Below the pieces are notes generated by a model, which had not been told where the DNA came from, made no database searches, and saw only the letters and a list, made by a program, of their open reading frames with translations. Below, piece by piece: positions 39,999 to 60,702 of a DNA stretch of 64,000 bases. How positions within the stretch are numbered: the first letter of the stretch is position 1; each line of letters begins with the position of its first letter. Origin of the DNA: an uncultured bacterium. GTDB taxonomy: Bacteria; Electryoneota; Tariuqbacteria; Tariuqbacterales; Tariuqbacteraceae. Both the position numbers and the translations under genes were made by a program. The stretch covers positions 8,747 through 72,746 of the forward strand of contig CAYQZD010000002.1 in assembly GCA_964421875.1 (NCBI GenBank). The letters run 5' to 3'.

Positions 39999-40070
39999 AT
40001 CGGAGATGGGAGAGATTTAATCATAAGGGACAGTTCGCGAACCGCCCCTACAGATATCAGATTCCGCGTT

Positions 40071-40104
40071 ATGTCAGGTCTTTAGCGAAGCGGAGACCTG
40101 ACAT
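40071..40104. repeat. Family D hairpin (perfect copy) between apt and gpsA
   Basis: ATGTCAGGTCTttagcgaagcggAGACCTGACAT, an 11-bp stem. Confidence 0.75.
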
Positions 40105-42190: not shown

Positions 42191-42276
42191 TTATTCGCCT
42201 GCTGTGTATTATTAATTGTCCTGAAAATAAGTCTGCAAGTCTGTAAGTCTTCAAGTATTTAAGTCAGAAAAAAATT

Positions 42277-42528
42277 GTAGGGTGGGTTCTTAACCCACCA
42301 ATTTACAAGTCATTCCGGCGCAGCCGGAATCCTTCTTCATAGGGGCGAACGGCCGTTCGCCCCTACCGGCATCCAATAACTGGGAACCACTGTGTCGCAG
42401 AGTCCCCGCACTCTGCGACATCACCGGCGGCTCCGAATAGTTTGCCCTGCAGATTGGTGTTAAGTTATGCCTTTAACGAAACGGAGACCTGACGTTTGAC
42501 TTGTTCCCACCCTCCCGCGTGGGAATGC
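42277..42528. repeat. Mosaic cluster of REP-like hairpin modules (families B, A, F, C, D', E)
   Basis: B: GTAGGGTGGGTTcttAACCCACC (42277-42299). A: gtcATTCCGGCgcaGCCGGAATcc (42309-42332). F: GGGGCGAACGGCCGTTCGCCCC (42342-42363). C: tGTCGCAGAGTccccgcACTCTGCGACa (42392-42419). D': 42463-42498. E: TTCCCACcctcccgcGTGGGAA (42502-42525). Confidence 0.8.
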
Positions 42529-42936
42529 ATACTATAAAGTGATGTGTTCAATAATTGAACCTAAAATTAAGAAATTTTTCACCAAAATTCAACAGGAGAA
42601 GACAATTGAGCCGATATACCGCTTAAAATACTTGCATTATTCCCTATAATTAATTATATTAGATGCGTCTAACTTTTTGGTTCCTCGCTGTTCTGTGTGG
42701 GTAAAGTTCTTATAATAAAAAAATTCACCTAATTATCTATAAAACAAATCCCCCTAAATCCCCCTTTTCCAAAGGGGGACTTCCGGTTTCCCCCCTTAGA
42801 ATAAGGGGGGCAGGGGGGATTTCTAGCAACATACTATTGTCTAATTACCCATACAAAACAGCGAGGAACCTTTCTTATTATATCCATACAATTTAGCGAA
42901 GAGCCAACTTTTTTATAACCGCCATGTTCGGAACCG

Positions 42937-43419
42937 ATGCGTTACGATACTGTCGTAGAAGAATACATTGAAATCATAAGCGGACTCCTCACGGATAATC
43001 ATGAGGCGCGGGTCAAAGATATCGCCAAATCTCGTGGCGTCACCCTTCCCACAGCTTCCAGCGCAGTGGAACGGCTTAAGGAGATGGGACTGGTGAATCA
43101 TAAGCACTATGGAACCGTAACCTTGACCCGGAGCGGGGAAGAACTGGCCTCGGAATTGGACGAATATCACGCAGCCATCAAAAAACTGCTGGTGAACGTG
43201 CTGGGAGTATCCGAGGAAATCGCCGAGGAGGACGCCTGCAAACTGGAGCATCAAATCTCTGCGGAGACGGTGCAGTCGCTTCTCAGGCTGTTGAAATTCC
43301 TGGAAAAGTGTCCCCGAGGCGGCACGGATTGGCTGAAAATCCTCCACGATTGTTCCCTCTTCACTGATGGAGACGAACAAGGATGCCTCCAATGCCGATG
43401 GCTGGACCAGGCGGACTGA
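42937..43419 (+). CDS. DtxR/MntR-family metal-dependent transcriptional regulator with a Cys-rich C-terminal tail
   Basis: VEEYIEIISGL...DIAKSRGVTLPTASSAVERLKEMGLV...LTRSGEELA matches the DtxR wHTH and dimerisation region. Tail CPRGG...C...CLQC. Confidence 0.7.
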   Translation: MRYDTVVEEYIEIISGLLTDNHEARVKDIAKSRGVTLPTASSAVERLKEMGLVNHKHYGTVTLTRSGEELASELDEYHAAIKKLLVNVLGVSEEIAEEDACKLEHQISAETVQSLLRLLKFLEKCPRGGTDWLKILHDCSLFTDGDEQGCLQCRWLDQAD

Positions 43420-43461
43420 TGCTGAGTGAGATGCACTATGCCGAATTCTGAGGAATAGAAC

Positions 43462-45540
43462 TTGGATATGAATCTTGTTGATAAAGAAGACCGGAATCTG
43501 CAATTCGAGTTGGGTGAACCGCCGGGCCGACGCCGCCGCCGCAGATGCCGTGCGAGGAGAGGTCTGAGTACGGGGGAACGAAAGCCCCGCATAGTGCTGG
43601 TGGGTCACCCCAATGTGGGTAAAAGCGTCATCTTCAGCGCCCTCACCGGCAAATACGTCGATGTCTCCAACTATCCCGGAACCTCGGTGGAAATCGCCTG
43701 CGGCGGTATGAGTATCGGCTCCCAGAACTATGAGCTGATCGACAGCCCGGGTATAAACAGCCTGATTCCCCGTTCCGAGGATGAGCAGGTGACGCTGAAT
43801 ATTATCACCAATCCCGGCGTAGTCGGCGTGATTCACGTTATCGACGCTAAGAACATCAAACGCGGCCTGCTGCTCACTATGCAGTTGATTGAGCTGGGGC
43901 TGCCCTTAGTCGTGTGCCTCAATATTTTCGATGAAGCCCTGGAGCGGGGTGTAAATATAAATCCCGCCGAACTGACTAAGATTTTTGGCGTGGAATTCAT
44001 TCCGACGGTGGCCACCGAAGGCCGGGGCTTGGATAAACTGAAAAAGTCGATAACGGATATGCATCTCTCGGAGTTTCAGGCTAAGTTCGCCCCTGAAATT
44101 GAGAGGAGTGTCACTCGCATCGCTCAGCGAATCGAAGGAAGTCATCTCCGCCCGCGGGGAGTAGCGCTAAATGTCGTCGCCGGAGAAGGCAAAATCCCCG
44201 ACTTCCTCAAAGATAGTGACAACGGATTTAGAAGTTATCTGCGCGACGAAGTGCGGTCGCTGCAAAAAAAACTCCCCAATCCCCCGGGGTATGAAATCCA
44301 TTCCAGCCTGATTCATCAGGTGGAAGACACCTCCCCGGAATTCCTCACCCATAAAAAAACCACCCGCCGCCGCCTCAGAGAGCGGCTGGGGCTGCTCGCA
44401 ATGCACCGTTGGTATGGCATCCCTTTTATCATCATCACCCTGTTTATCCTCTATGAACTGGTCGGAGTTTTCGGCGCGGGAACCTGTGTGGACTATATTG
44501 AAAACCACATCTTCGGAGGAATAGACGACGCGGGAAACTTCTACGGCGTCATCAATCCCCTGGCGATTCAAATCCTCGCTTTCCTGAAAGGCTCCACAGT
44601 CGGCGGATTCTTCTATGAAATGCTGGTAGGAGAATACGGCGCTATTACGGTCGGACTCACCTACTCAATCGCAATTGTGTTTCCCGTGGTCAGTCTCTTC
44701 TTCATTTTCTTCGGCATCCTTGAGGATTCGGGGTACCTCCCGCGCCTGACCGTGATGTCCAACCGATTGTTCCAGAAAATCGGGCTCAACGGCAGGGCTA
44801 TCCTGCCCCTGGTGCTGGGATTGGGCTGCGACACTATGGCGACCTTCACTACCCGCATCCTGGAGACCAAAAAGGAGCGAACCATCGCCACCCTGCTCCT
44901 CGCCCTGGGAATTCCCTGTTCCGCTCAATTGGGAGTGGTGCTGGGGATGATGGCCTCGATTTCCTTCTGGCTGCTGCTGGTGGTGGTCTTAACCGTCATC
45001 TCGCAGCTCTGGGTGGTGGGATACGCAGCTTCAAAGCTGATTCGCGGTAAAACCGCTGCCTTAATCGCGGAAGTCCCCCCCATTAGAATCCCAAAGTTGA
45101 AAAATATCCTGATTAAGACTTATTTTAGGGTGAAATGGTTTATGCGGGAAGCGGTGCCGCTCTTCATCCTGGGCACATTTATCCTCTTCCTGCTGGACAA
45201 GCTTAAACTGCTGTCCGGGCTGGAAAAAGCGGCCTCCCCGGTAATAACCGGGATATTGAACCTTCCCCAGCAGGCGACTCAAGCATTCATCATCGGCTTC
45301 CTCCGCAGGGATTACGGCGCCGCCGGGCTTTTCAAATTGGCGGAAAAGGGGCTGCTGGACAACATACAGATTACGGTCGGCATAGCGGTAATGGTCCTCT
45401 TCATTCCCTGCCTGGCGAATTTCTTCGTAATCATCAAAGAACGCGGATTCAAAACCGCAATGGTGATGAGCGCGTTCATCATCGTTTACGCCGTCTTGGT
45501 GGGCGGAGTGCTCAACCAAATCCTGCGGCTGGTTCTATAA
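43462..45540 (+). CDS. feoB: Ferrous iron transport protein B
   Basis: G-domain GHPNVGKSV, DSPG and NIFD motifs; C-terminal polytopic permease with gate motifs. Confidence 0.9.
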   Translation: MDMNLVDKEDRNLQFELGEPPGRRRRRRCRARRGLSTGERKPRIVLVGHPNVGKSVIFSALTGKYVDVSNYPGTSVEIACGGMSIGSQNYELIDSPGINSLIPRSEDEQVTLNIITNPGVVGVIHVIDAKNIKRGLLLTMQLIELGLPLVVCLNIFDEALERGVNINPAELTKIFGVEFIPTVATEGRGLDKLKKSITDMHLSEFQAKFAPEIERSVTRIAQRIEGSHLRPRGVALNVVAGEGKIPDFLKDSDNGFRSYLRDEVRSLQKKLPNPPGYEIHSSLIHQVEDTSPEFLTHKKTTRRRLRERLGLLAMHRWYGIPFIIITLFILYELVGVFGAGTCVDYIENHIFGGIDDAGNFYGVINPLAIQILAFLKGSTVGGFFYEMLVGEYGAITVGLTYSIAIVFPVVSLFFIFFGILEDSGYLPRLTVMSNRLFQKIGLNGRAILPLVLGLGCDTMATFTTRILETKKERTIATLLLALGIPCSAQLGVVLGMMASISFWLLLVVVLTVISQLWVVGYAASKLIRGKTAALIAEVPPIRIPKLKNILIKTYFRVKWFMREAVPLFILGTFILFLLDKLKLLSGLEKAASPVITGILNLPQQATQAFIIGFLRRDYGAAGLFKLAEKGLLDNIQITVGIAVMVLFIPCLANFFVIIKERGFKTAMVMSAFIIVYAVLVGGVLNQILRLVL

Positions 45541-45597
45541 TCCTGCGGGGGGATGAATCCCGCTTAACATGTTATTATTAATTATTAAGGATGATGT

Positions 45598-46260
45598 ATG
45601 AATCATCATGAGCATAAATGCGAGCGCAGGAGGCACGAGGAAGTGGTCGAAATCATCGGACTGCATCTGGAGCAGGGCGAAGTTGGGATTCCGGACCTGC
45701 AGGAGCATGACATTACCCTTCCCCGGCTGCAGGAGTTGGTGGATAGTAATCACATCTTAATTGAAGACGACAAAGTCCAATTTCGGAAAAAAGGAAAGCG
45801 CGAATTTCTCAGCATCATCCGCCGCCACCGATTGGCAGAGAGGCTGCTGCACGATGTCCTGGATTACTCGGACGAAGACGGCTCCGAGGAAATCGTCGGG
45901 AAAATGGAACATATCCTCAACGAGGATGTGACCGACAGCATCTGCACCCTCCTGGGGCATCCCGCCTCCTGCCCCCACGGACTCCCCATTCCAAGGGGAA
46001 GGTGCTGTGAACTTAAACAGGACAAGATTCCTGCCCTGATAACCTCGCTGAACCGGATGGAGCCCGGCGAGGAGGGAGTCGTCGCCTTCATCTCCACCAC
46101 CGACCATGACAAGTCGGATCGGCTGGCGGCGATGGGAATCATCCCGGGCGTGAGCATCAAACTCCATCAGTTGAAACCCGCTGTAGTCGTAATGTTCGAT
46201 GAAACCGTGCTCTCTATGGATGAGGAATACGCACAGATAATATACCTCCGCCGAAAATGA
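45598..46260 (+). CDS. DtxR-family regulator with a fused C-terminal FeoA/SH3-like domain
   Basis: RRHRLAERLLHDVL...CPHGLPIP (DtxR dimerisation and metal-site region). C-terminal EPGEEGVVAFI...MGIIPGVSIKL...VVVMFDET FeoA-like domain. Confidence 0.65.
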   Translation: MNHHEHKCERRRHEEVVEIIGLHLEQGEVGIPDLQEHDITLPRLQELVDSNHILIEDDKVQFRKKGKREFLSIIRRHRLAERLLHDVLDYSDEDGSEEIVGKMEHILNEDVTDSICTLLGHPASCPHGLPIPRGRCCELKQDKIPALITSLNRMEPGEEGVVAFISTTDHDKSDRLAAMGIIPGVSIKLHQLKPAVVVMFDETVLSMDEEYAQIIYLRRK

Positions 46261-47756
46261 TTAAAACCAATTGGAAAGACTGGATAGAGCGGGACCTGTA
46301 CCGTGAGCGGATGTTCCTCAAAGGGCTCATCCTGCTCCTTTCAGCCTGGCATCTTGGGGTGATACTGTGGGTGGGATTCCACCGCTTTGCCTACCCTTTC
46401 GAGTTGGAATGGACTGAAGGCGCTGTAATCCAGACTGCAATCCGAATTCTGAATGGTCTTCCCATTTACACCAATCCTGGCCTGGAATGGGCCTCGCCGC
46501 TCTCGTCGCCGCTTTATTATTATTTGGGCGCGGCTTTAATGAGTGTGTTCGGAGAGGGATTCGCTGCGCTCCGAATTATCTCGCTCTGCGCCTCCATCGG
46601 AACTGGTCTCCTTATATACCGTTTCCTCCGGAACCTAGAAATCGAAGACCTCTATGCTTTCGCCGGATTCGGTCTCTATTTTGCCGCTTTCTCCGCCGCC
46701 GGAGGATGCTACGATCTGGCGCACCGAGATTCATTGGCCCTGTTGCTCGCCTTAAGCGCTTATTTCATTATCTCCCCGAAAGGAGGTTGGGAAAGAGCAG
46801 CTCTAAGCGCCGCAGCGGTGACTCTGTCAGTATTCACCTCACAATACTATCTTCTGATATCAATCTTATTAGGAATATTCTGGTTCGTTCAGGAACGCCG
46901 AAATTTCTATGTTTACCTCGTGACCTGTATGTTACTGGGCGCCGCCGGAGTTAGTCTGTTATACGCTAAAAATGGCTTGCCGTTTTTAAGAGTTATCATC
47001 ACTTTACCCCGCTTCGAACCGGGACATATCATCACTTTTTGGTTGACGGAATGTCCCGGAAGATTTCTGCCGTTATGCCTGATGAGTATACCGGCATTCT
47101 ATCTCCTGGCGAGAAAAATTAAACGGGAATTTAATAAGCAAGCCCTGCTGTTTATGATGTTATGCGCAGGGCTCATAATCGTATCCTATATTGGATTTAT
47201 CAACGGTTCCGAATATGGAAACGCCTTTATGCCCGCAGGATTGGCGCTGGCGGCTATAGCCGCCTGGACTCTGCAGTATTTCAAGCTGAATGATTACAGG
47301 CTGGGCTGGCTGTTACCGGTCGCAGTCAAGGTTTTGGTGATAGCGCAGCTTTGCTTGTTGATTGTGCCGCCTCAGACTATGGTTCCCACCGAAGCCGATA
47401 CCGGCGCGGGCCGAGGCTTGATAGACAAGATTGCCTCGATTGATGGTGAAGTTTATATCCCCAAACACGGATATTATGAATATTTGGCCGGGAAAGAAAG
47501 TCATTTCCCCTGGGCGCATCTGTCGCAAATTACCGGCAGGACAGGGGAGGAAGCGCTGAGCAGGATTCCCGAAGACATCAAACGGGAAATAAAGGAAAAA
47601 CGCTTCAGCGCTATAATACTCGATGAACCTGCGGAATTCTGGCTGGAGTTCATCAGCCCTTATTATTATCTTGATGAAGAAATCTTCGAACAGCCGGGAG
47701 TATTTAAAACCAAAGCCGGTGAAATCACCCGCCCCCAATTCATCTTCAGACCGTAA
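46257..47756 (+). CDS. Polytopic membrane protein, paralogue-like of the N-terminal part of 37167..39146 (GT-C-fold glycosyltransferase suspected)
   Basis: About 11 TM helices and a soluble C-terminal ~110 aa; start overlaps the upstream stop. Confidence 0.35.
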   Translation: MIKTNWKDWIERDLYRERMFLKGLILLLSAWHLGVILWVGFHRFAYPFELEWTEGAVIQTAIRILNGLPIYTNPGLEWASPLSSPLYYYLGAALMSVFGEGFAALRIISLCASIGTGLLIYRFLRNLEIEDLYAFAGFGLYFAAFSAAGGCYDLAHRDSLALLLALSAYFIISPKGGWERAALSAAAVTLSVFTSQYYLLISILLGIFWFVQERRNFYVYLVTCMLLGAAGVSLLYAKNGLPFLRVIITLPRFEPGHIITFWLTECPGRFLPLCLMSIPAFYLLARKIKREFNKQALLFMMLCAGLIIVSYIGFINGSEYGNAFMPAGLALAAIAAWTLQYFKLNDYRLGWLLPVAVKVLVIAQLCLLIVPPQTMVPTEADTGAGRGLIDKIASIDGEVYIPKHGYYEYLAGKESHFPWAHLSQITGRTGEEALSRIPEDIKREIKEKRFSAIILDEPAEFWLEFISPYYYLDEEIFEQPGVFKTKAGEITRPQFIFRP

Positions 47757-47786
47757 TGTTTAACGATTCTTGAAAATAGTCGCTGA

Positions 47787-47920
47787 TGTAGGGGCGAACG
47801 GCCGTTCGCCCCTAACAAAACACAGAACAGTCTTTTTGGAAATCGCTATAAACACTGTTTCATTATTATAGTGGAATATTAAAGCTTAAAGTGCAGCAGA
47901 GTCCCCGCACTCTGCTGCAT
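47787..47920. repeat. REP-like hairpins, families F and C
   Basis: GTAGGGGCGAACGGCCGTTCGCCCCTAAC (47787-47815); GTGCAGCAGAGTccccgcACTCTGCTGCAt (47891-47920). Confidence 0.75.
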
Positions 47921-48043
47921 AATCGCATATGTGCTGTTAACTTTCAGCAGTCGGTCCGGTTTGATTAAAAACTGGCGGAACATTCACCGGCGGGGGGAGT
48001 TAAAATACACAAACCTTAAAGCTGAAAAAATTGACCTAATACT

Positions 48044-48277
48044 ATGCCCTTCTACGAATATAGATGCCAAAAATGTGAACATGAATTCGAGGAACTCATC
48101 CGTTGCGAAGATGACCTGAAAAATCTCCGATGCCCCCAATGCGGCGGGGAAGAACTGGGAAAACTGCTCTCACTTTTCGGGATGAGGACGCCCGGCGGTA
48201 AAGTTGTTTCATCGGCGCCCGGAGGGGGAGCGGCCTGCGCCGGATGCGCTAAAACCTCCTGCGCCGGATGTAAATAG
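48044..48277 (+). CDS. FmdB-family zinc-ribbon protein
   Basis: MPFYEYRCQKCEHEFE...CPQCG signature. Confidence 0.7.
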   Translation: MPFYEYRCQKCEHEFEELIRCEDDLKNLRCPQCGGEELGKLLSLFGMRTPGGKVVSSAPGGGAACAGCAKTSCAGCK

Positions 48278-48329
48278 TGATTGGTGAATGGGGAATAGTG
48301 GTTGGTGAATAGAAGATGGTATTAGCAGA

Positions 48330-48585
48330 ATGTCAGGTCTATTATAAATCCGCAGGTTGGGTTCTTAAATGATGTGCCCGCCGGGTCCCCGCACCCGGCG
48401 GAAACCCGTAGGGTGGGTTCTTAACCCACCAATTTACAAGTCATTCCGGCGCAGCCGGAATCCTTCTTCGTTGAAGCGCTTTGCGAACCGCCCTATTATC
48501 AGGGCGTTCAATTAAACGCCCCTGCCGGCAACCGATAATATGTGCGTTATGTCAGGTCCTTAGCGAAACGGAGACCTGACATTCA
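48330..48585. repeat. Mosaic REP-like cluster (families C', B, A, D) downstream of mutS
   Basis: CCGCCGGGTccccgcACCCGGCGG (48377-48400); GTAGGGTGGGTTcttAACCCACC (48408-48430); gtcATTCCGGCgcaGCCGGAATcc (48439-48462); ATGTCAGGTCcttagcgaaacggAGACCTGACAT (48549-48582). Confidence 0.8.
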
Positions 48586-48625
48586 CCTCTACTTAAAGAG
48601 TATTAGCTTTCAAACGATCCTTCCA

Positions 48626-51196
48626 TCACGCCTTCCTAATCAACTCATATATCAAATCCAAAGCTTCCCTGGGACTAAGGCTGTCAGGATTTATCCCCTT
48701 CAACATCTCTTTTAACTCGTCCTTCACTCCGGCAAACAGGCTGAGCTGGTCCATCGTATGACCCGATACATAACCCGGACGCTGCATTTGCTCCCCTTCC
48801 AGCCCCGCCAACACCTCCAATGCCCGCTCTATCATCTTCTCCGGCAGTCCTGCCATCCGCGCCACCTGAATACCGTAACTCCGGTCGCAGCCTCCGGGTG
48901 CGATTTTGCGCAGGAAAATCACCCGGTTCTCGTACTCCTTGACCTGGATGTTGAAGTTCTTCACCCCCGGCAGCTTCTTTTCCAGTTCCGTCAATTCGTG
49001 GTAATGGGTGGCGAACAAGGTCTTCGACCGCAGCCGCGGATTGTCGTGCAGGTATTCGGTGAGGGCCCAGGCGATGGAAAGACCGTCGAAAGTCGAAGTC
49101 CCCCGGCCGATTTCATCCAGCACTATCAGGCTTTTAGTGGTGGCGTGGTTGATGATGTTCGCCGCCTCATTCATCTCCAGTAAAAACGTGCTTTCGCCTT
49201 CAGCCAGGTTATCCTGCGCCCCCACCCGCGTAAAAATCCGGTCCACTATGCCAATCCTGGCGCTTTTAGCCGGGACGAAACTCCCAATCTGCGCCATCAA
49301 TGTTATCAACGCCGCCTGCCTCAGGTAAGTCGATTTCCCCGCCATATTAGGCCCGGTTATCAGCATTATCCGCAGCCCGCCGCCAATATTCAAATCGTTG
49401 GCAATGAACTTCTCCCCCGGTGGCAGCAGCCTTTCCACCACCGGATGCCGGCTCTCCGAAAGTTCTATCGTATCCCCCTCGAAAACCTCAGGCCGGCAGT
49501 AACCGTACTCCTCCGCAGCCTCGGCAAAACCAAGGAAAACATCCAATTCCGCCAGCGAAGCCGCGTCCTGCTGAATCGTTTCAGCGAAGCCTGCGATGGT
49601 GTAGCGCAGTTCGTTGAAAAGCTCGACCTCCAGTTCCTTAATCTCCTCCTCCGCGCGAAGCACCTGCTCCTCGTGCTCCTTCAATTCTTCCGTTATGTAA
49701 CGCTCCGCGTTCACCAGCGTCTGTTTGCGGATATACTCCGGCGGAACCTTGCCTATCTGAGCCTTGGTGACCTCGATGTAATATCCGAAAACCTTATTGT
49801 AACCGATTTTCAGGTTCTGGATGCCGGTGCGGGAACGTTCATCCTCCTGCCGCCCGACAATCCACTCCTTACCGCTGCCCGATATCCGCCGCAGCTGGTC
49901 CAGCCGCTCATTATACCCCTCCCTAAAAACTCCGCCGTCTCCTGCAGTGAAGGGCGGGTCCTCCACCAGAGCCCGCCGCAGCCGGTCCGTAAGCTGAGGC
50001 AGCGGATCGATTGCTTTGCCGATTTCCCGCAGACAAGCCTCTTCCGCGCGGTGCAATATCTCCTTGATTTCAGGAAGAGCCTCCAGTGTCCTGAATAGTC
50101 CCAGCGCATCCCGCGGACCGCCCCGTCCTCCCGCCAGGCGGGACAAAGTCCGCTCGATGTCGCACAGCTTCCTTAACCGGGAAGACAATTCCCGGCGCAG
50201 CGTCCGCTCCTTCAAGCAAGCGTCCACCGCCTCCAGCCGGCGCTCCGCCCCCGCCGCCTCCAAAAGAGGCCGGCCCATCCACCGCCGCAGTAGCCTCCCC
50301 CCCATCGAAGTGAAAGTCCGGTCAAGCGTATGATAGAGCGTGGCTTCTTTGCGCCCGGAAAATGAGGTGAATAATTCAAGATTGCGCAATGTCGCCGGAT
50401 CCAGCATCATCCCTGACTTCGAAGGAGCCAGAAATACCCGCCGAATCTGCGAACAATCCCGCTTCAGTTCCTCCTTCAAATAAGTCAGAACCGCCCCTGC
50501 TGATTGCGCCGCCGCCGGAAAATGCTCCAGCCCCAGCCCTCGAAGCGAAATGACGCCGAAGTGAGTCTTAAGAGCGTCCACCGCGTAAGAGTGAGAAAAA
50601 TAAAGGTCGTTCACCGGGGATATAACTGTATCCCGATTGAGGTCAAGCGATTCGGAAAGGGAATCCGCGGTAGCTTCGGGAAGAATTATTTCGGCGGGAG
50701 AAAAATGCATAAGCTCCGCCCCCATCTCGGAAACGGAGCCCTGAGAAACGAAAAATTCGCCGGTGGAAACGTCGGTGAAAGCGATTCCCAGAACCTCCCG
50801 CTCCAAAACCGCAGCCGCTAAATAGTTGTTGCGATCCTCCTCCAGCAGGCTTTCCGAAAGCGAGCTGCCCGCAGTCACCACCTCGATGACCTCACGCTTA
50901 ACCAAACCCCGAGCCTTCTTAGGGTCCTCAACCTGCTCGCAAACCGCAACCTTGTAACCCGCGCGAACCATCTTCGCTTTGTAGTTTTCCAACTGATGAT
51001 GAGGAAATCCCGCCAGAGGTGTCTTACCGGAACCGCCGTGGTTGCGGGAAGTGAGGGTCAAGCCCAGCGCTTCGCTGGCGATCTTGGCGTCTTCAAAAAA
51101 CATCTCGAAAAAATCGCCCATCCGGAAGAACAAAACCGCGCCGTCATACTGAGCCTTGATGGCTGAATATTGCTGCATCATCGGAGTGCGGCTCAT
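48626..51196 (-). CDS. mutS: DNA mismatch repair protein MutS
   Basis: N-terminal TPMMQQY...FFRMGDFFE; Walker A GPNMAGKST; 856 aa. Confidence 0.95.
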   Translation of the reverse strand: MSRTPMMQQYSAIKAQYDGAVLFFRMGDFFEMFFEDAKIASEALGLTLTSRNHGGSGKTPLAGFPHHQLENYKAKMVRAGYKVAVCEQVEDPKKARGLVKREVIEVVTAGSSLSESLLEEDRNNYLAAAVLEREVLGIAFTDVSTGEFFVSQGSVSEMGAELMHFSPAEIILPEATADSLSESLDLNRDTVISPVNDLYFSHSYAVDALKTHFGVISLRGLGLEHFPAAAQSAGAVLTYLKEELKRDCSQIRRVFLAPSKSGMMLDPATLRNLELFTSFSGRKEATLYHTLDRTFTSMGGRLLRRWMGRPLLEAAGAERRLEAVDACLKERTLRRELSSRLRKLCDIERTLSRLAGGRGGPRDALGLFRTLEALPEIKEILHRAEEACLREIGKAIDPLPQLTDRLRRALVEDPPFTAGDGGVFREGYNERLDQLRRISGSGKEWIVGRQEDERSRTGIQNLKIGYNKVFGYYIEVTKAQIGKVPPEYIRKQTLVNAERYITEELKEHEEQVLRAEEEIKELEVELFNELRYTIAGFAETIQQDAASLAELDVFLGFAEAAEEYGYCRPEVFEGDTIELSESRHPVVERLLPPGEKFIANDLNIGGGLRIMLITGPNMAGKSTYLRQAALITLMAQIGSFVPAKSARIGIVDRIFTRVGAQDNLAEGESTFLLEMNEAANIINHATTKSLIVLDEIGRGTSTFDGLSIAWALTEYLHDNPRLRSKTLFATHYHELTELEKKLPGVKNFNIQVKEYENRVIFLRKIAPGGCDRSYGIQVARMAGLPEKMIERALEVLAGLEGEQMQRPGYVSGHTMDQLSLFAGVKDELKEMLKGINPDSLSPREALDLIYELIRKA

Positions 51197-51813
51197 TGAA
51201 CCTCCCTGACCACCCGAGTTTTGAGAGGTAGTCTCTTCTCTATCGCTCCGGAGACGGAATCAGCCCCGGACTCCTCCTTGAAACCGCCCACAAGAACCAA
51301 ATAAAGCATTTTGTTATTGACAATTTTATCCCGAATCACCACGGAATAGCCCATCCCTTCCAATCGCACATTCAGATTAGCAGCGTTGATGAAATCGGAG
51401 AAAGCCCCGACCTGAACCCAAAATGTCTCAATTTGACCGGGGAGTGAAGGAGAGGTGAGTTCAATCTGAGGACGTTTATTGAGTAACTGTAAAAGCGAAT
51501 CCGCCTTCAAGTAAGCGCCCCGGGCGTAGTAATACTCCTGGAGGCGGCTCAGCGATTCCCATCCCAGAGGATTCTCCGGAAACTGCTTCCAGATAGATTC
51601 GAAAAGCCCTGCTGCCCGTTCACCCTCCTGCTCGAACAACGCTTCCAGAAACTGCTTCTCAATCTTACTTGCCCCCGATTCGCGCAATTCCCGGAGTTCA
51701 TCTATCCGCCCGGCGCGCAATAATGAGATAATCTCCGAGGGTTCAGCGAAGCATAAAGTGGCGGTGAAAAACAACCATAACAATAACACTATTGGGTTGA
51801 AGCGTCGAATCAT
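51193..51813 (-). CDS. SPOR-domain protein
   Basis: Signal/TM N-terminus; C-terminal FWVQVGAFSDFINAANL...VLVGGF SPOR motif. Confidence 0.65.
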   Translation of the reverse strand: MIRRFNPIVLLLWLFFTATLCFAEPSEIISLLRAGRIDELRELRESGASKIEKQFLEALFEQEGERAAGLFESIWKQFPENPLGWESLSRLQEYYYARGAYLKADSLLQLLNKRPQIELTSPSLPGQIETFWVQVGAFSDFINAANLNVRLEGMGYSVVIRDKIVNNKMLYLVLVGGFKEESGADSVSGAIEKRLPLKTRVVREVQ

Positions 51814-51828
51814 CGCATTGCCCCGAGG

Positions 51829-52968
51829 CTATAACCTGAAAGAACGCCACCGTTTACATCTGGGGCAGCGCCATTGAGGCTGAGAATCGATGTAACCGCA
51901 TTCCTTGCAAACATAAGCTTCCCGCTCCTCCATCACCATATCCAGGATTTCAAGACCGAGACCGGCTGCCTCGGCGTGCTGCTTGTCAGCCGCCAGGAAA
52001 CGGAAAAGGTTCCGTCTTATCCAGAGCGATTCCGGGGAACGGTCCAAACCTTCACGGCAGATGTCGATAGCCTCCGCAGTTTCACCCTTACGGTCTAAAA
52101 AACGAGCCAGAGCCACCACCGCCCGAGTATTCTTAGGATTGTCCCGAACCAGTTCCCGGTAAATCGATTCCACCTCCTGGAATCTCCCAAGCTCAAAAAC
52201 CGCCTTCTCCATCTGGTCGAAGGCAAGATAAGACAGCAGGGGATTGTTCTTAAAAAACTTCCGCCACTCCGAAAGCGCGTCCTCTGTCCGATTTTCCAGG
52301 ATATAAGACCCGGCAAGCTCCAGATATGCCGGCGCTAATGAGTTATCCAGTTTCAAAGCCGCGCGGTAGCGCAGACGGGCGTCATGCTCCCTGCCACCTG
52401 AAGACTTGATCGCATTTCCCTCCATCACCCGATAAAGCGCCAGTTTCTCCCGGTCGTGAACGCCAATGATTGACTGAATTCGCTTCTCTACTTCAAAAGC
52501 GGACTTCCAATCACCCAGTGTCTCTTCTATTTCCAACCACTTACCCAGCGCCCAGACATCGTTCTTGTCGATGGAAAGAAGACCATTGATAAAGGGGATA
52601 GCTCCTCGAAGGCTGCCGCCCGCTAAATGGTCAAGCACCAGCGAACGAAGCAGCTTGGTCTTAAGACCGGGGGTGAGTCTTTCCCGCACTGTAAGTTCTT
52701 TGTGAACCTTAATCGCCAGTTGGCCCTGATCCATCTCCCGCAGGATGTCGCCATATAGAATGTAAGCCTCGATGTTCTCCGTGTCCTCCTTTACAACCTG
52801 CCGCAGTTTGTCCAAAGCCTTGCGCTTTTCGCCCGCGAGAAGAAGCGAAAGCGCCTGGGTGTAAGGAGGCTGCTGCCGGGAGCGCTGACGCTTGGTGTAA
52901 ACAAGCGTTCCCACAGAAGCAAGGATGAACAATCCCGCCGCCAATATGACTATCGCTTCCCAACTCAT
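51829..52968 (-). CDS. lapB: Lipopolysaccharide assembly protein B-like (TPR repeats plus a rubredoxin-type zinc ribbon)
   Basis: N-terminal TM; TPR repeats; C-terminal CKECGY...RCPRCKRW. The lapA-like gene lies immediately upstream on the same strand. Confidence 0.7.
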   Translation of the reverse strand: MSWEAIVILAAGLFILASVGTLVYTKRQRSRQQPPYTQALSLLLAGEKRKALDKLRQVVKEDTENIEAYILYGDILREMDQGQLAIKVHKELTVRERLTPGLKTKLLRSLVLDHLAGGSLRGAIPFINGLLSIDKNDVWALGKWLEIEETLGDWKSAFEVEKRIQSIIGVHDREKLALYRVMEGNAIKSSGGREHDARLRYRAALKLDNSLAPAYLELAGSYILENRTEDALSEWRKFFKNNPLLSYLAFDQMEKAVFELGRFQEVESIYRELVRDNPKNTRAVVALARFLDRKGETAEAIDICREGLDRSPESLWIRRNLFRFLAADKQHAEAAGLGLEILDMVMEEREAYVCKECGYIDSQPQWRCPRCKRWRSFRL

Positions 52969-52969
52969 A

Positions 52970-53311
52970 TCAGTCTTCCTCTTCCTCGCTCTCTAAAGAG
53001 GCCTCCGGAAATGTAGGAACCTCCTCCTCTATCGATAGGTTCCGAAGCCGGTCGAGTTCATCGCGAAGCCGGCGGTTTTCACGCTTATGACGCCCGATTT
53101 CCGTCTTCAACTGGAACAGATTGTAAATGGATATCAGGAAGAAAACCAAAACGCCCAGTGCAAAGGCGATATAGAGAGCAAAGTAGAGCGGCATCTCTGG
53201 CGTAATATAACCCCCGATGTGAATCTGCACTTTCTGGTCCTGATTCTGAAGGGAAAATCCCAGAATGGCAAGCAGGACGAGGATTATCAAACTCCAGCGG
53301 ATAATCCACAT
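52970..53311 (-). CDS. lapA: Lipopolysaccharide assembly protein A-like (DUF1049)
   Basis: Two TM helices with FSLQNQDQKVQIHI between them; charged C-terminus. Confidence 0.6.
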   Translation of the reverse strand: MWIIRWSLIILVLLAILGFSLQNQDQKVQIHIGGYITPEMPLYFALYIAFALGVLVFFLISIYNLFQLKTEIGRHKRENRRLRDELDRLRNLSIEEEVPTFPEASLESEEEED

Positions 53312-53326
53312 AATAGTTAACTCCGG

Positions 53327-54655
53327 TTATATTGTGATGTTGAATGCTTCTTTTCTCGAACTGCACCTGAGAGTGAATCCCGATACCGAGTTCACCGATA
53401 CTCTGACAAAGTCCCCCGGCGAATAGTCGCCTCGGGGGAAAATGGCTATCCGGTTGTATTCGGTGCGCCCCATCCAGTAATCCGAATCCTTCTTACTCGC
53501 GCGCTCCACCAGCGCCGTGAAACTTCTGCCGATTTGAGCCTCCAGGTTCTCCCGCGAAATCCTGCGCGTGAAGGTGATTACTTCCTCCAAACGCTCGATC
53601 TTCTCCGCCTCAGGCACGTCATCGGTAAGCCCGGCGGCGGAAGTCCCCTCCCGCGGTGAATAACGGTAAGTGAAAGCGTCGTCGAATCTGACCGCCTCTA
53701 TCAAATCTAAAGTCGCACGGTAATCCTCATCCCTCTCCGAGGGGAAACCGACGATGACGTCGGTAGTGAGCGAAATTCCCGGAATGATGCGGCGAGCCTT
53801 TTCCGTAAGCGCCAGGTATTCAGCGCCGCTGTAACCTCGCTTCATCAGCCCCAAAATCCGGTCGCTCCCCGCCTGGAAGGGCAGATGCAAATGCGGAGCG
53901 GCGCTGCCGCACTCCGCCATCGCTTCCAGTAGTTCATCGGAAAGGTCTTTGGGGTGAGAAGTCAGGAAACGCAGGCGCTCTACCCCCCCCACCTTATCCA
54001 CTTCCCTGAGTAACTTTGGAAAGTTTATGTCATTATGATTGTAAGAGTTAACGTTTTGCCCCAGCAGGGTAATCTCTTTTACCCCGGCCGCCGTCAAATA
54101 CTCGATTTCAGCGATAATGCTCTGAGCCGGGCGAGACCTCTCCCCGCCGCGGACATAAGGAACAATGCAGTAAGAACAGTAGTTGTCACAGCCCCGCGCT
54201 ATCGCTACCCCTGCGCTCACGCCGGAACAGACTGGAAGCAGATTCTCGTAGGTTTCGACGGGATTGTCCCCCATCCACACCCTTCGAGTGAATTCATCAG
54301 ATACTAAAAGTTCCGGTAGTTTACGGTATCCGTCAGGACCCACCACCAAATCAAGATGCGGAAATTCCTCCAGCAGCCTTTCCCCAAACCGGCTCCCCAT
54401 ACATCCCATCAGTATGATTCGCAGCCCCGGATTGGAACGCTTAAGCGCCTTGTATTGCGATAGAAGTGAAAATACCCGCTGTTCCGCATGACGCCGAACA
54501 CTGCAGGTGTTGATAAGTAAAAAATCAGCCGTCTTCCTGTCGCTTGCAGGAGTCATTCCGCGCAATTGAAGCAGATGCTCCACCAGCGCGGAATCGTAAT
54601 CGTTCATCTCACAGCCGTATGTCTCGATGAAGTATCTTCCCTTCAATACATCCAT
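53327..54655 (-). CDS. miaB: tRNA methylthiotransferase (radical SAM, MiaB family)
   Basis: YFIETYGCEMNDYDS; radical SAM CDNYCSYC; C-terminal TRAM domain; 442 aa. Confidence 0.8.
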   Translation of the reverse strand: MDVLKGRYFIETYGCEMNDYDSALVEHLLQLRGMTPASDRKTADFLLINTCSVRRHAEQRVFSLLSQYKALKRSNPGLRIILMGCMGSRFGERLLEEFPHLDLVVGPDGYRKLPELLVSDEFTRRVWMGDNPVETYENLLPVCSGVSAGVAIARGCDNYCSYCIVPYVRGGERSRPAQSIIAEIEYLTAAGVKEITLLGQNVNSYNHNDINFPKLLREVDKVGGVERLRFLTSHPKDLSDELLEAMAECGSAAPHLHLPFQAGSDRILGLMKRGYSGAEYLALTEKARRIIPGISLTTDVIVGFPSERDEDYRATLDLIEAVRFDDAFTYRYSPREGTSAAGLTDDVPEAEKIERLEEVITFTRRISRENLEAQIGRSFTALVERASKKDSDYWMGRTEYNRIAIFPRGDYSPGDFVRVSVNSVSGFTLRCSSRKEAFNITI

Positions 54656-54722
54656 AAGAATAATATAAGGAATTCATAAAGATAAATCAAAAATCGACTT
54701 GTGTTATTCAGGAGTGTCTTTC

Positions 54723-54948
54723 GTGCCGCAGAGTCCCCGCACTCTGCGGCACAACACCTGCGCTCTCAATTGTAGGTCGGCTTATTCAAAGCCGACAACC
54801 GGCAACAGGTAACCGGAAACCGGCAACCATAAACTTACTGAGCTGCCAGGTCCCCGCACCCGTTAGTGTTGCGTTATGTCAGGTCTTTAGCGTAGCGGAG
54901 ACCAGACATAATTTTTCCCTCCTTCCCACGCTCCCCCGTGAAAATGCA
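54723..54948. repeat. Mosaic REP-like cluster (C, GTAG-hairpin, C', D, E')
   Basis: GTGCCGCAGAGTccccgcACTCTGCGGCAC (54723-54752); GTAGGTCGGCTTattcaAAGCCGAC (54772-54796); D at 54874-54910; E' at 54923-54948. Confidence 0.8.
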
Positions 54949-54956
54949 AATATGAC

Positions 54957-55340: not shown

Positions 55341-55388
55341 ACGCTCCTCCGTAGTTATACTTGTTTTGAATTAGCTTCGAACCGCCGC

Positions 55389-56054: not shown

Positions 56055-56075
56055 AATCTAATCCTCCTTTTAACT

Positions 56076-56273
56076 CGTTCCACGCTCCGGCGTGGGAATG
56101 CATAATGGATTGTCATTGCCAACGATTTGTAGGGTGGGTTTCAACTCACCACCATCTGTCATTGCCAACGAAGTGAAACAATCGGTAAATTATACCGCGT
56201 TATGTCAGGTCTTTAGCGCAGCGGAGACCTGACATTTTACCTCGTTCCCACGCTCCCGCGTGGGAATGCAGAC
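56076..56273. repeat. Mosaic REP-like cluster (E, B variant, A variant, D, E)
   Basis: TTCCACGCtccgGCGTGGGAA; GTAGGGTGGGTTtcAACTCACC; TGTCATTGccaacgaagtgaaaCAATC (stem covariation); ATGTCAGGTCtttagcgcagcggAGACCTGACAT; TTCCCACGCtcccGCGTGGGAA. Confidence 0.8.
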
Positions 56274-56341
56274 GAGCGACCGATAGCGTTTTCATCCTAA
56301 GTTATGCGATGCAGCGAAAGAGACCCTCGAATGAGGATTTA

Positions 56342-57145
56342 TCAACCCAACGCCTCCAGTATCTTCCCCTGAATCTCCGGAGTCGCAGCCACTATATTAC
56401 CCGTCTCCAGATAATCGGGCTCCCCCCCAAATCCGCTGACTATCCCCCCGGCTTCCCGGACAATCAAACTCCCCGCCGCCATATCCCAGGGCGAGAGCCC
56501 CTTTTCCCAAAAACCGTCCAGCGCCCCCGACGCCGTCCAGCATAAATCAAGCGCCGCCGCCCCCGCCCGACGAATCCCGCTGACCGCGTGAAACAGCCGC
56601 GAAAATAACTCCAGAAAGTCCCCCAGATAATCCTTCTCCCGAAAAGGAAATCCCGTTGCTAATAGGCAGTCGCTGAATTCCACGCGATGGCTGACGCTGA
56701 TACTCTCCCCGTTGCGAAACGCTCCCAAACCCCGCCCCGCATAGGATAGCTCCCCCGACACAGGATTCAGCACCGCCCCCGCCTCAATCTCACCGAAACC
56801 CTCCACCCCGGAAGCCATCCGCTCCACCGCCACCGAAACCGCGAAAACCGGAAAGCTGTGAATGAAATTCGTCGTCCCGTCCAAAGGGTCGATTATCCAG
56901 CGGTAATCCTCCCCGGAAATCCCTCCGCCCCGCTCCTCTGCTAATATCCCGTGACTCGGGAAACGCTCCAATACATAGCTGACAATCGCCCTCTGAGACT
57001 CCAAATCCACTTCGGTCACATAGTCCTTTTCCGATTTATGCTCAACCTTGCCAATTCCGCCCTTCCTGTAATGCCGGAGTAAAACCTCCCCTCCAACCAG
57101 AGCCGCCCCCTTAGCCGTCTCCAATAACGCACTGACTTCAATCAT
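56342..57145 (-). CDS. Inositol monophosphatase family protein (SuhB/IMPase/CysQ family; subtype not resolvable)
   Basis: WIIDPLDGTTNF motif; family-level match only (the metal-binding region ...HGILAEE...). No gene symbol assigned because the specific subfamily cannot be distinguished from sequence. Confidence 0.85.
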   Translation of the reverse strand: MIEVSALLETAKGAALVGGEVLLRHYRKGGIGKVEHKSEKDYVTEVDLESQRAIVSYVLERFPSHGILAEERGGGISGEDYRWIIDPLDGTTNFIHSFPVFAVSVAVERMASGVEGFGEIEAGAVLNPVSGELSYAGRGLGAFRNGESISVSHRVEFSDCLLATGFPFREKDYLGDFLELFSRLFHAVSGIRRAGAAALDLCWTASGALDGFWEKGLSPWDMAAGSLIVREAGGIVSGFGGEPDYLETGNIVAATPEIQGKILEALG

Positions 57146-57194
57146 ATAATATAATCATTATGTAAATATTGACCTGTTGTGCTGCAGACTGTTC

Positions 57195-57470
57195 GAGAAT
57201 GCCCCGAATCTGTCATTCCCGCGCAGGCGGGAATCCGGAGCGTGGGCTGCAAGCGAGGACTTGATAATGTGCCCGCCGGGTCCCCGCACCCGGCGGTATG
57301 AGATTCAGCTCTGCAATATGCGTTATGTTATGCCTTTAGCGCTGCGGATACTACCGTGCTGTCGAGTCTCCGCACTCGACAGCTAACCATTGAAAAACCT
57401 CGTGCCGCAGACTCCCCGCAATTTGTCCGAGAATGCCCCGAATCTGTCATTCCCGCGGCCAGTGCGCCGT
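57195..57470. repeat. REP-like cluster with two ~45-nt direct repeats (gagaatgccccgaatctgtcattcccgcg) plus C' and C variants
   Basis: Copies at 57195-57243 (with hairpin TTCCCGCgcagGCGGGAA) and 57424-57458. CCGCCGGGTccccgcACCCGGCGG at 57272-57295. GCTGTCGAGTctccgcACTCGACAGC at 57357-57383. Confidence 0.75.
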
Positions 57471-57518
57471 ACGGCGTAAAACGGGAACCCGGAGAGCGGC
57501 GCGGTCTTCGAGCGCGGA

Positions 57519-57556
57519 CTTGTTACTTAACACTTGATACTTGTTACTTGTAACTT
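57519..57556. repeat. ACTTGTTA octamer direct repeats at the 3' end of gene 57544..58728
   Basis: acttgtta-cttaac-acttgata-cttgttacttgtaac; the same octamer family occurs at 20772-20813. Confidence 0.4.
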
Positions 57557-58728: not shown

Positions 58729-58732
58729 TGGA

Positions 58733-60121
58733 TTATCCCTCCTCAGGAAAGATTTTTCCCGGATTGAGAAGATTCTTAGGGTCGAAAACAGACTTAATCC
58801 TCCGCTGAAATGCGATGCTTTCGGCCGAAAGCTGAAGTGGGAGATACTTACGCTTCGCCAAACCTATGCCATGCTCACCGGAAATCGTGCCCTCCAAACG
58901 CACAACCTCCTTTAAAACACGTTCCACTCCCCCAAGCGCACGAGCCTCCTGAACCGGGTCGTTACGGTCGAAAATGAAATTGACATGAAGATTGCCGTCC
59001 CCGGAATGTCCGTAAACCGGCATCGTCACCCCGATTTCCTCGGAAAGTTCCTCGGCGAAAGCCACCAAATCCGCGATCCTGCCTCGAGGAACCGACACAT
59101 CCTCGTTGATTTTGCCGCTCGCCAGCCGGGTAAGCGAAGGAGAGATTGAACGCCGCAGCTTCCACAGGTTCTCCCGTTCCGCCTCCGCTTCACCGATCTT
59201 TACCCGCATCGCTCCGAAATCACGGCATAATTCCTCAGTCCTCTCCCCCAGAATCCGGTTCAAATCATCGGATTCGTCATATTCTATCAACAGCGCTGCG
59301 TTAGTTGCTTCGGACACATCAAGTTCAACATAACTGGTGATTGCCTGAAGTGTAGTCCGGTCGATGAACTCCATTATCGAAGGAGTGTGCCCTGAATTCA
59401 ATATCGCCGTCACCGCTTTCGCTGCATCGACCGCCGCGCCGAACTCCACCAGCAGAGTCAAATGAGAAAGCGGCGCTTGAATCAACCTCAGCGCCGCCTT
59501 GACTATGATACCTAAAGTCCCTTCGCTACCGCACATTAAAGGAGTCAAATCCAAAGGAGAACGGTAATCGTCCAGCCAGCCAGCGCGCTGCGCTTCACCC
59601 TCCATACTTACGAATTCAATCCCTAAAACATAATCCGAGGTCACCCCGTATTTTAGACAGTGTAAACCGCCGGCGTTTTCAGCAATATTCCCCCCGATGG
59701 TGCAGACCTTATAACTCGATGGATCCGGCGGGTAAAAAAGCCCCAGCTTCGCTGTCTCGTCCTGTAATTTAGAGGTAATCACTCCGGGCTCAACTACAGC
59801 TACCCGTCGCTCCCCGTCGATTGATAATATCCGCTTCATCCGCTCGAAGGAAAGCGCAATACCCCCCCGCTGAGGAACCGCTCCACCGGACATACCAGTC
59901 CCCGCGCCCCGAACCGCAATCGGTATCCCAAACTTCGAAGCGGTCTTAACTGTATGGGATACATCGGCAGCGTCCGCTGCGAATACAACCGCCATCGGAA
60001 GACCGCGCTCCCGCCAGACATCTGCAGCGTAAACTATAGCCGCTTCCGGGGAACATTCCACCTTTCCTTCGCCTAATTTACGCTTTAATTCCTTTATCAC
60101 CGGGTTCTTGGGTGAAGCCAT
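58733..60121 (-). CDS. FAD-linked oxidase (GlcD / D-lactate dehydrogenase family)
   Basis: PCMH-type FAD-binding domain (RGAGTGMSGGAVP) and a C-terminal FAD-oxidase domain; 462 aa. Confidence 0.75.
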   Translation of the reverse strand: MASPKNPVIKELKRKLGEGKVECSPEAAIVYAADVWRERGLPMAVVFAADAADVSHTVKTASKFGIPIAVRGAGTGMSGGAVPQRGGIALSFERMKRILSIDGERRVAVVEPGVITSKLQDETAKLGLFYPPDPSSYKVCTIGGNIAENAGGLHCLKYGVTSDYVLGIEFVSMEGEAQRAGWLDDYRSPLDLTPLMCGSEGTLGIIVKAALRLIQAPLSHLTLLVEFGAAVDAAKAVTAILNSGHTPSIMEFIDRTTLQAITSYVELDVSEATNAALLIEYDESDDLNRILGERTEELCRDFGAMRVKIGEAEAERENLWKLRRSISPSLTRLASGKINEDVSVPRGRIADLVAFAEELSEEIGVTMPVYGHSGDGNLHVNFIFDRNDPVQEARALGGVERVLKEVVRLEGTISGEHGIGLAKRKYLPLQLSAESIAFQRRIKSVFDPKNLLNPGKIFPEEG

Positions 60122-60128
60122 CAGGGCC

Positions 60129-60398
60129 CTATTTCTCGCTGGATGTGTCGGATTTTACTGTTTTCTGCGGCACGGTTTCGGTGGGTTTGTAGTGTTTCCG
60201 GCCGTTGCCGTCCGATTTACGCTTATAATCCGTCTCGTAGAAACCGCTGCCCTTGAAAATCAATCCCGCGCCCCCGGAAATCAATCGTTCAACCCGCCCT
60301 TTGCAGCGGGGGCATATCTTTATCGGTTCCGATAGAATACTCTGGAAAGCCTCGAACTGATAATGGCATCTGCTGCACCTGTACTCGTATGTCGGCAT
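60129..60398 (-). CDS. FmdB-family zinc-ribbon protein (second paralogue)
   Basis: MPTYEYRCSRCHYQFE...CPRCKG. Confidence 0.7.
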   Translation of the reverse strand: MPTYEYRCSRCHYQFEAFQSILSEPIKICPRCKGRVERLISGGAGLIFKGSGFYETDYKRKSDGNGRKHYKPTETVPQKTVKSDTSSEK

Positions 60399-60499
60399 CG
60401 TTGTGTCTTATGTTATTGTTATTGTTGTAGGTATTAAGAAATATCAGTGATTACACATATCTGAGAAAAGTCTGCAAGTTTGCAGGTCAACACGTTTTC

Positions 60500-60702
60500 G
60501 TGCCCGCCGGGTCCCCGCACCCGGCGGCATTGAACGGCGGATTTCTCGTTCCCACGCTCCCGCGTGGGAATACAGACATATCTGCTGTCGACTCTCCGTA
60601 GTCTAAAGCATATTCAGTATTAATAATAACTTAAATAAACGTTTTCGTAGGGTGGGTTCTTAACCCACCAATTTACAAGTCATTCCGGCGCAGCCGGAAT
60701 CC
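60500..60702. repeat. Mosaic REP-like cluster (C', E, B, A)
   Basis: CCGCCGGGTccccgcACCCGGCGG (60503-60526); TTCCCACGCtcccGCGTGGGAA (60548-60569); GTAGGGTGGGTTcttAACCCACC (60647-60669); gtcATTCCGGCgcaGCCGGAATcc (60679-60702). Confidence 0.8.

Follow-up and report, generated by a model that had tools for sequence, protein, structure and literature searches.

Hairpin mosaics fill many intergenic regions of the window, by which we mean the whole stretch of 64,000 nucleotides analysed here, from an uncultured bacterium of the Tariuqbacteraceae (GenBank assembly GCA_964421875.1, contig CAYQZD010000002.1, positions 8,747 to 72,746). They are built from short palindromic modules resembling repetitive extragenic palindromic (REP) sequences, which we group into families A to F. 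We consider it likely that the clusters are accumulated, co-resident REP-type families, non-autonomous and copied or moved by HUH/Y1 transposases like the REP-associated tyrosine transposases (RAYTs), encoded elsewhere in the genome. In other genomes, RAYT genes are flanked by B hairpins and Y1 genes by D-like hairpins, and in a syntenic relative the equivalent gaps between genes are filled or empty at different places.

Hairpin families in the window

The six families had been proposed from the letters of the window, and reading of the named regions together with repeat searches recovered all of them at the positions given (Table 1). Beyond these six, the window has an 85-nt unit, a palindrome type that we call H and a GTAG variant at 54772-54799. 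The listed mosaics are also there, except for 20697-20722, which is half of an inverted C-type hairpin pair. Among the proposed single copies, 40071 is an exact D, whereas 7238 has the D stem only and 29673 and 35929 belong to the seventh, 85-nt family. The kinship between A and the arms at 15.4-16.1 kb is confirmed, with both in the tagged CGTC/TGTC superfamily (PMC3733652).

All module copies are intergenic, and every module is a predicted hairpin of single-stranded DNA (ssDNA), with folding energies from -8 to -14 kcal/mol and z = -3.2 to -8.2. For the GTAG-tagged hairpins the energies are -8.1 (B), -13.4 (F) and -9.2 kcal/mol (54772 variant), with z = -3.8 to -6.9. Allowing up to three mismatches, E has five matches in the window and D has four, with 0 expected for each in window shuffles. 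Hairpins with both the loop and the stem of C number 33 in the window plus the fetched loci, compared with 3.15 in shuffles. Independent short-read assemblies of the same organism match the segments 42841-48399 and 48442-54750 at 100% identity, and their breakpoints fall within A, C, and C2 copies. Thus, the repeats are no assembly artefact.

An unpaired 5' GTAG is found in all copies of B, at one end of each F copy and in the 54772 hairpin, and not in A, C, D or E. The A copy at 62964 (-) reads CGTC-ATTCCGGC-GCA-GCCGGAAT-CC and the A2 variant reads TGTC-ATTCCCGC-GCAG-GCGGGAAT-CC; in three of the five A copies the tag is AGTC, not CGTC or TGTC. Family C starts with 5' GTG, and its loop, C[CT]CCGC with a closing T-A pair, is constant, while its stems vary by paired changes: double changes occur in 8 of 12 pairs, and none of 500 shuffles reached the observed score. 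In the loops of D (e.g., window 40081-40093) and of A we find GCGAAGC, GCGCAGC or GCGAAAGC, motifs of very stable DNA mini-hairpins in the literature, a match that hints at selection for ssDNA folding.

Some modules recur in fixed company. B and A form a single unit of 62 nt, 100% identical in all three copies, the spacer AATTTACAA included. E comes after D in three of the four good D copies, with a spacer that is conserved in part, and the remaining spacers are unrelated.

Spread in other genomes and turnover

We searched the exact 23-nt B hairpin in a species-representative genome set of 596 Gb, where arithmetic gives ~0.02 chance matches. It is present at 68 loci in at least 14 genomes. The hosts are metagenome-assembled genomes (MAGs) of Pirellulales, Phycisphaerae/Sedimentisphaerales and other Planctomycetota, Ca. 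Tariuqbacter arcticus (Electryoneota, FCB group), BS750m-G18 and an unclassified bacterium, with single copies in Burkholderiales, Rhodospirillales and Paracoccaceae (Proteobacteria). Other MAGs contain 12-25 exact B copies within the sampled loci, and viral contigs gave no match to B. In BS750m-G18 and Tariuqbacter, B adjoins E-, A- and C-type hairpins, in orders and relative orientations that differ. With B in other genomes beside these companions, the modules are therefore not confined to the window and GTAG copies do exist elsewhere, so the original prediction of dispersed families stands.

At a closer distance, we compared the window to a syntenic relative (contigs L090/L091, MutS 78% identical), in which the gene order equals that of window 39.4-54.7 kb. 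Families A, B, C, E and H are present in this relative along with a dimer of CGTC type, in partly different gaps. The feoB-feoA gap is filled in L090 (571 bp) and empty in the window (57 bp), and the PRT-acylphosphatase gap has an E copy in L090 and is empty in the window. In the opposite direction, the dtxR-AIRS gap spans 161 bp without hairpins in L090 and 746 bp with mosaic 1 in the window, the gpsA-PRT gap is empty in L090 (77 bp) and filled in the window (159 bp, with the F-like hairpin and D of 40026-40104), and the region 5' of the Zn-ribbon gene is empty in L090 and holds mosaic 2 in the window. The Zn-ribbon/mutS gap is filled in both, as A-B-C in L090 and as C2-B-A-x-D in the window. 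The suggested check for presence or absence polymorphism thus returned filled and empty sites in both directions. Module order differs between sites, and at one orthologous site of L090, in line with the shuffling that had been described; but this shuffling is not free, as the composites B+A and D+E explain part of it.

Association with RAYT and Y1 transposases

The proposed tie of GTAG hairpins to RAYT genes was found for B in other genomes, and F is without a candidate mobiliser. Four independent contigs (L050, L087, L093/94 and L095) have a RAYT gene bordered by inverted copies of B or of a close variant, the arrangement of a REPtron. The L050 contig belongs to Tariuqbacter and encodes an open reading frame (ORF) of 183 amino acids (aa) homologous to the E. 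coli TnpA_REP (PDB 4ER8, E = 5e-34; Pfam Y1_Tnp, PF01797). YafM and IS608 queries served as leads only, and the L050 match was then confirmed via Pfam and PDB. Three B copies lie on one side of this gene and an inverted B on the other, with the tags pointing outward.

The L050 RAYT has 5509 homologous proteins at E <= 1e-20, and the homologues with the B-type flanking arrangement are 55-68% identical to it. Exact B lies on either side of the L087 RAYT, tags outward, while the flanking variants are a covarying GTAGGGTGGGCTTCAGCCCACC in L093/L094 and GTAGGGTGGGTTTCAACCCACC in L095. In L088, a RAYT of 59% identity has at its flanks a GTAG hairpin that is related to B but not the same. The RAYTs at L087 529-1074 and L093 2464-3009, 62% and 61% identical to the one of Tariuqbacter, come from separate sample sets. 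Downstream of the RAYT in L087 and L093/94 is an enoyl-CoA hydratase (ECH) gene, which follows immediately in L093 and with one small ORF in between in L087, and L093/94 also has an HMGL-like gene upstream. This neighbourhood suggests that the RAYT position there is fixed in the chromosome and vertically kept.

For family D, the contig L072 encodes a Y1 protein of 204 aa (Pfam 3e-7; 4ER8 2e-6) amid at least seven D-like hairpins, in the form GATGTCAGGTCTTAGCGNAGCGAGACCTGACA and the covarying form TGTCGGGTC. Homologues of this protein in L096 and L097 (71-73% identical) are flanked by TGTCGGGTC...GACCCGACA hairpins. The D-type Y1 clade and the B-type RAYT clade share 23% identity. Two families of the window, B and D, have a matching enzyme clade in other organisms.

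Two other arrangements were considered as REPtron signs and rejected. The sole inverted A pair around an ORF spans a PEPCK-like housekeeping gene, and the genes enclosed by inverted E pairs in BS750 are ordinary.

Proposed origin of the mosaics

In the mechanism that we propose, every family would have an enzyme of its own that reads a tag plus a hairpin, the signals being GTAG plus GGGTGGGTT in B and the TGTCAGGTC stem in D. Fresh copies would settle in permissive intergenic DNA, often next to existing hairpins, and over time this would produce mosaics that differ in composition and order by site and by lineage. The B+A and D+E pairs may now move or convert as composites. We infer that the source genome encodes the matching enzymes, and A, C, E, and F would be mobilised likewise.

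The orientation of the modules is of relevance here. Between 40 and 61 kb, oriented copies of every family are all on one strand, with neighbour genes on both. Near 40 kb, GC skew and gene strand both turn from + to -, as at a replication terminus, and the hairpin mosaics are nearly all on one side of this switch. IS200/IS605-type enzymes insert strand-specifically into single strands. Co-orientation across both gene strands, at a skew switch, fits strand-specific insertion of this kind, and it may reflect insertion into one replication strand. When the L090 copies are read in the orientation of the window, 8 of the 10 oriented ones agree with it. Since no convincing match to a dif-like site was found near the 40-kb skew switch and L090 shows little GC skew, we infer the link to replication rather than observe it.

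Several points weigh against the proposed origin. The enzyme link rests on other organisms because the 64-kb window is without a RAYT; among all its ORFs we found no transposase, integrase, Y1, RAYT or IS200 gene. For A, C, E and F we have no candidate mobiliser, and no transposase is reported for CGTC repeats (PMC3733652). D is rarer than B: its exact 5' half had no match in the JGI metagenomes, and the stem-only pattern yielded there a single further contig with a true relative (L072), together with ~14 unrelated palindromes. The sequences used for C covariation had been chosen in advance to have stems of 6 bp or more. Moreover, stem covariation is no proof of selection, because template-switch correction can also maintain perfect palindromes.

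A more ambitious version of this origin is, in our view, unlikely. One genome would host at least six hairpin families, each with its own Y1 clade, one of them dedicated to the untagged TGTCAGGTC-type D. Insertion would be strand-specific, during replication, into shared intergenic landing pads. Pairs of the B+A type would let enzyme-less hairpins hitch-hike on the RAYT of their GTAG partner, and the repertoire would be exchanged horizontally across phyla. The picture of REPIN-RAYT systems is mostly one of vertical inheritance, contrary to such cross-phylum exchange.

Alternative explanations

The hairpins could instead be RNA elements selected by the host, such as terminators, 3'-end stabilisers or small RNAs acting on neighbour transcripts. 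The modules are indeed intergenic and stable with covarying stems, A with CCTTCTTC after it gets a weak terminator score, and many REPs are transcribed, as argued in PMC3733652. However, a terminator scan gave 32 sites compared with 25 +/- 5.6 in shuffles, with only A scoring, and weakly, and most modules lack a T-run. A promoter scan detected no enrichment tied to the modules. The orientation of B is unrelated to gene strand: at 50 loci, comparison with the strands of the neighbour genes gave ++ 16, -- 14, -+ 12 and +- 8, so that 12 of the 50 lie between divergent genes. The window copies keep one orientation across + and - genes, and relatives have gained or lost sites beside the same genes. 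In Rfam 15 no module matched at the gathering score or at E <= 1, and the two matches elsewhere were at chance level (E ~0.9). Without enrichment or preferred orientation, and with clusters between divergent genes, the RNA explanation is therefore weak and in our opinion improbable. The terminator-like role attributed to the clusters falls with it, as sites are not enriched, T-runs are missing and strand preference relative to genes is absent.

We regard as still less probable that the hairpins are mainly landing pads or footprints of other mobile elements and not Y1-copied. REP-targeting insertion sequences are known, according to PMC8450116, and the modules do adjoin each other. But neither the window nor the 22-kb loci of the relative hold an insertion sequence or transposase, and B and D flank Y1 genes as REPtrons. 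Finally, local segmental duplication within a 20-kb stretch, in place of dispersed families, has hardly any chance of being right: although most window copies are in 40-63 kb and B+A is 100% identical in three copies, the units have sharp boundaries and unrelated flanks, and the same modules recur at different sites in the relative and also in further genomes and phyla.

Genomic setting and additional repeats

Between the clusters, the tested genes have housekeeping roles; among them are gpsA, one gene of the AIRS family, the feoAB/dtxR operon, mutS, lapAB, and miaB-like, suhB-like, nitroreductase and PEPCK-like genes. Further left in the window are ackA, fabH, fabD and gap, and four tested ORFs had no Pfam match. 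The proteins of the window are singletons when clustered at 90% identity. For MutS, the nearest protein is 78% identical, relatives with a name are listed as "FCB group bacterium", and proteins of KSB1 and Calditrichota come next at ~52%.

C-terminal sorting-type domains are common to the window, Ca. Tariuqbacter and the MAG BS750m-G18. Together with the MutS relatives, this places the host among uncultured bacteria of the FCB group. A direct repeat of 93 nt (86% identical) resembles such a domain. Its first copy, at window 663-755, lies close to where the first ORF (51-791) ends. The second copy, at 2359-2451, lies just 3' of the second ORF (788-2248), which has a weak FlgD_ig match, and within a 66-aa ORF (2287-2487).

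Table 1. Coordinates of hairpin modules, mosaics and related elements in the window
Feature	Position (strand)	Modules	Setting or remarks
A, exact	42309, 48440, 60679 (+); 62964 (-)		A2 variant at 57212
B, exact	42277, 48408, 60647		
C/C2/C3	42404, 47903, 54735, 48387, 57282, 60513, 57368; also 20658 (+), 20712 (-)		
D	40071, 48549, 54876, 56202		degenerate at 42452, 57315
E	42504, 54923, 56077, 56245, 60549		
F	42339, 47788		
Mosaic 1	42277-42532 (+)	B 42277-42299, A 42309-42332, F 42339-42366, C 42392-42421, degenerate D 42452-42495, E 42504-42525	gap between AIRS-family gene (-) and DtxR/FeoB operon (+)
Mosaic 2	47788-47920 (+)	F 47788-47815, C 47891-47920	3' of 499-aa ORF
Mosaic 3	48330-48585 (+)	D half-site 48330, degenerate B ~48355, C2 48378-48401, B 48408-48430, A 48440-48463, D 48549-48582	between Zn-ribbon gene (+) and mutS 3' end (-)
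Mosaic 4	54723-54951 (+)	C 54723-54752, GTAG variant GTAGGTCGGCTT..AAGCCGAC 54772-54799, degenerate C2 54845-54862, D 54876-54909, degenerate E 54923-54944	between miaB-like gene and 127-aa ORF
Mosaic 5	56068-56273 (+)	degenerate E 56077-56098, B variant 56129-56150, D 56202-56235, E 56245-56266	
Mosaic 6	57190-57495 (+)	A2 TGTCATTCCCGCGCAGGCGGGAATCC 57212-57236, C2 57273-57296, degenerate D 57315-57358, C3 57358-57383, degenerate C 57400-57425	
Mosaic 6, second A2 left arm	from 57446		loop enlarged
Mosaic 6, 34-nt direct repeat	57190 and 57424		
Mosaic 7	60500-60708 (+)	C2 60504-60527, E 60549-60570, degenerate C3 60583-60616, B 60647-60669, A 60679-60702	
H-type C/G-run palindromes CCCCCCTTAGAATAAGGGGGGCAGGGGGGATT	42756-42822 (+); second copy 60735-60770		also in L090, L048
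F-like hairpin and D	40026-40104 (+)	F-like GTAG hairpin, reversed, 40026-40051, then exact D 40071-40104	between convergent genes
Head-to-head CGTC-tagged dimer	62927-62987	CGTCATCAGCCGTACGGCTGATCC (+) 62927-62950; exact A, CGTC tag (-) 62964-62987	
Inverted C-type pair	20644-20726	20644-20677 (+), 20693-20726 (-)	loop identical, stems different
Four head-to-head dimers	15389-16068	TGTC/GTC-tagged hairpins	tagged class of A
~100-nt post-stop element	23181-23330 (+), 26345-26445 (+), 56270-56345 (-)		in L090 at 21340-21554 and ~5768-5850

Additional repeats accompany the hairpins. The dimers at 15.4-16.1 kb form an array-like series with ~200-bp spacing and arms like GTCATCCTGAACGAAGTGAAGGATCTC, in an AT-rich gap of 1.3 kb (window 15164-16470) between divergent genes. 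Short runs of tandem 8-nt units, AAGTCTGN or ACTTGTNA, adjoin mosaics at 42229-42275, 60468-60490, 57520-57550 and 20775-20815. Comparable runs lie beside B in the BS750m-G18 and Tariuqbacter loci, and GGGTTTAGGG-like runs precede E in L090.

The 85-nt unit has two inverted copies, 29665-29750 (+) and 35891-35960 (-), with 87% identity over 70 aligned nt. It folds into three predicted helices (-23.8 kcal/mol, z = -6.9), and the hairpins beside D-type Y1 genes are similar to its first stem, TGTCGGGTTC.

A conserved element of ~100 nt is found directly after stop codons, with the pattern ..CCATCATTCGATGGATTCTCTTCGCGA.C.TCGC..TTAGGATGAAAA..ACGGCTCGCGTATA..ACGCTGCC..TATTTTCAGG. Its orientation is always that of the upstream gene, unlike the hairpin modules, and it had no Rfam match. 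It is perhaps a structured RNA of the 3' or leader type.

Implications

The mosaics are a known kind of selfish DNA, rich but ordinary, and they reveal no new kind of system. Mild novelty lies only in B being identical across phyla, in D having a candidate enzyme and in B+A being a composite unit. To our knowledge, such repeats had not been described before in the lineage of the window. With our results, the known range of tagged REP families and of their RAYT partners includes an uncultured lineage of the FCB group. They also present one exact GTAG hairpin kept across phyla while its RAYT diverges to ~60% identity, and give a non-GTAG family, D, a candidate enzyme. At the practical level, the repeats explain the short-read assembly breaks in these gaps for this organism, and they would yield spurious small ORFs in annotation.

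Comparison with known systems

GTAG-tagged REPs and their RAYT (TnpA_REP) transposases reportedly form REPtrons, as described by Nunvar in 2010, Bertels and Rainey in 2011, and Ton-Hoang in 2012. The B, F, and 54772 hairpins of the window are likewise extragenic palindromes of 23-28 nt with a 5' GTAG. B flanks RAYTs as inverted copies with outward tags (L050, L087, L093-95), and a related RAYT goes with a related hairpin (L088). Unlike those systems, B is single in the window and fused to A, with no REPIN doublets, in which two inverted REPs lie close together and fold into one long mobile hairpin; from 40 to 61 kb, every B, C, D and E hairpin is single and co-oriented with the others, and inverted pairs in the window are limited to 20644-20726, 62927-62987 and 15.4-16.1 kb. 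It also differs in that the B 23-mer is identical across phyla though the RAYTs are only ~60% identical, and in that the 64-kb window showed no RAYT.

In the bacterial interspersed mosaic elements (BIMEs) of enterobacteria, associated with Gilson and Bachellier, successive units are said to alternate in orientation and to be Y/Z variants of one REP family joined by defined linker motifs, with IHF, gyrase or Pol I as binding partners. The window has extragenic mosaics too, with more than one type of palindromic unit and partly conserved short linkers (B-AATTTACAA-A and D-E), so the original term BIME-like is acceptable in a loose sense. It does not apply strictly: the window has at least six unrelated families, and from 40 to 61 kb they are co-oriented and do not alternate.

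Y1 transposases flanked by non-GTAG inverted repeats are described as TIRYT/TIRtron (PMC3733652). Similarly, D-like hairpins devoid of GTAG flank a distinct Y1 clade (L072, L096 and L097), and they are multiplied around the L072 gene. These flanking units are, however, short hairpins with a conserved loop, TTAGCGNAGCG, and not long terminal inverted repeats.

The survey of Di Nocera (2013; PMC3733652) sorted REPs into GTAG- and CGTC-tagged superfamilies, of which several families may share a genome; the FCB-group lineage was not included. Its CGTC/TGTC repeats have the tag, a stem of 8-9 bp beginning with AT, a loop of 4-5 nt and a short CC(A) tail and are for the most part arranged as head-to-head dimers, and CGTC-1 is the dRS3 of Neisseria, located in intergenic mosaics among other repeats. 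A and A2 present the tag, an AT-start stem of 8 bp (ATTCCGGC or ATTCCCGC), a loop of 3-4 nt and the CC tail, and A2 includes the ATTCCC-N8-GGGAAT form of dRS3. Head-to-head dimers are found at 62927-62987 and, four of them, in 15.4-16.1 kb, while the B+A copies (n=3) and A2 are single. The differences are the AGTC tag in 3/5 A copies, a window without dRS3-bounded RS units and a host of the FCB group. As in the Neisseria mosaics (PMC3733652), the copies in the window are clustered and interleaved with other repeat families. Thus, the clusters compare best with Neisseria-style mosaics and not with true BIMEs.

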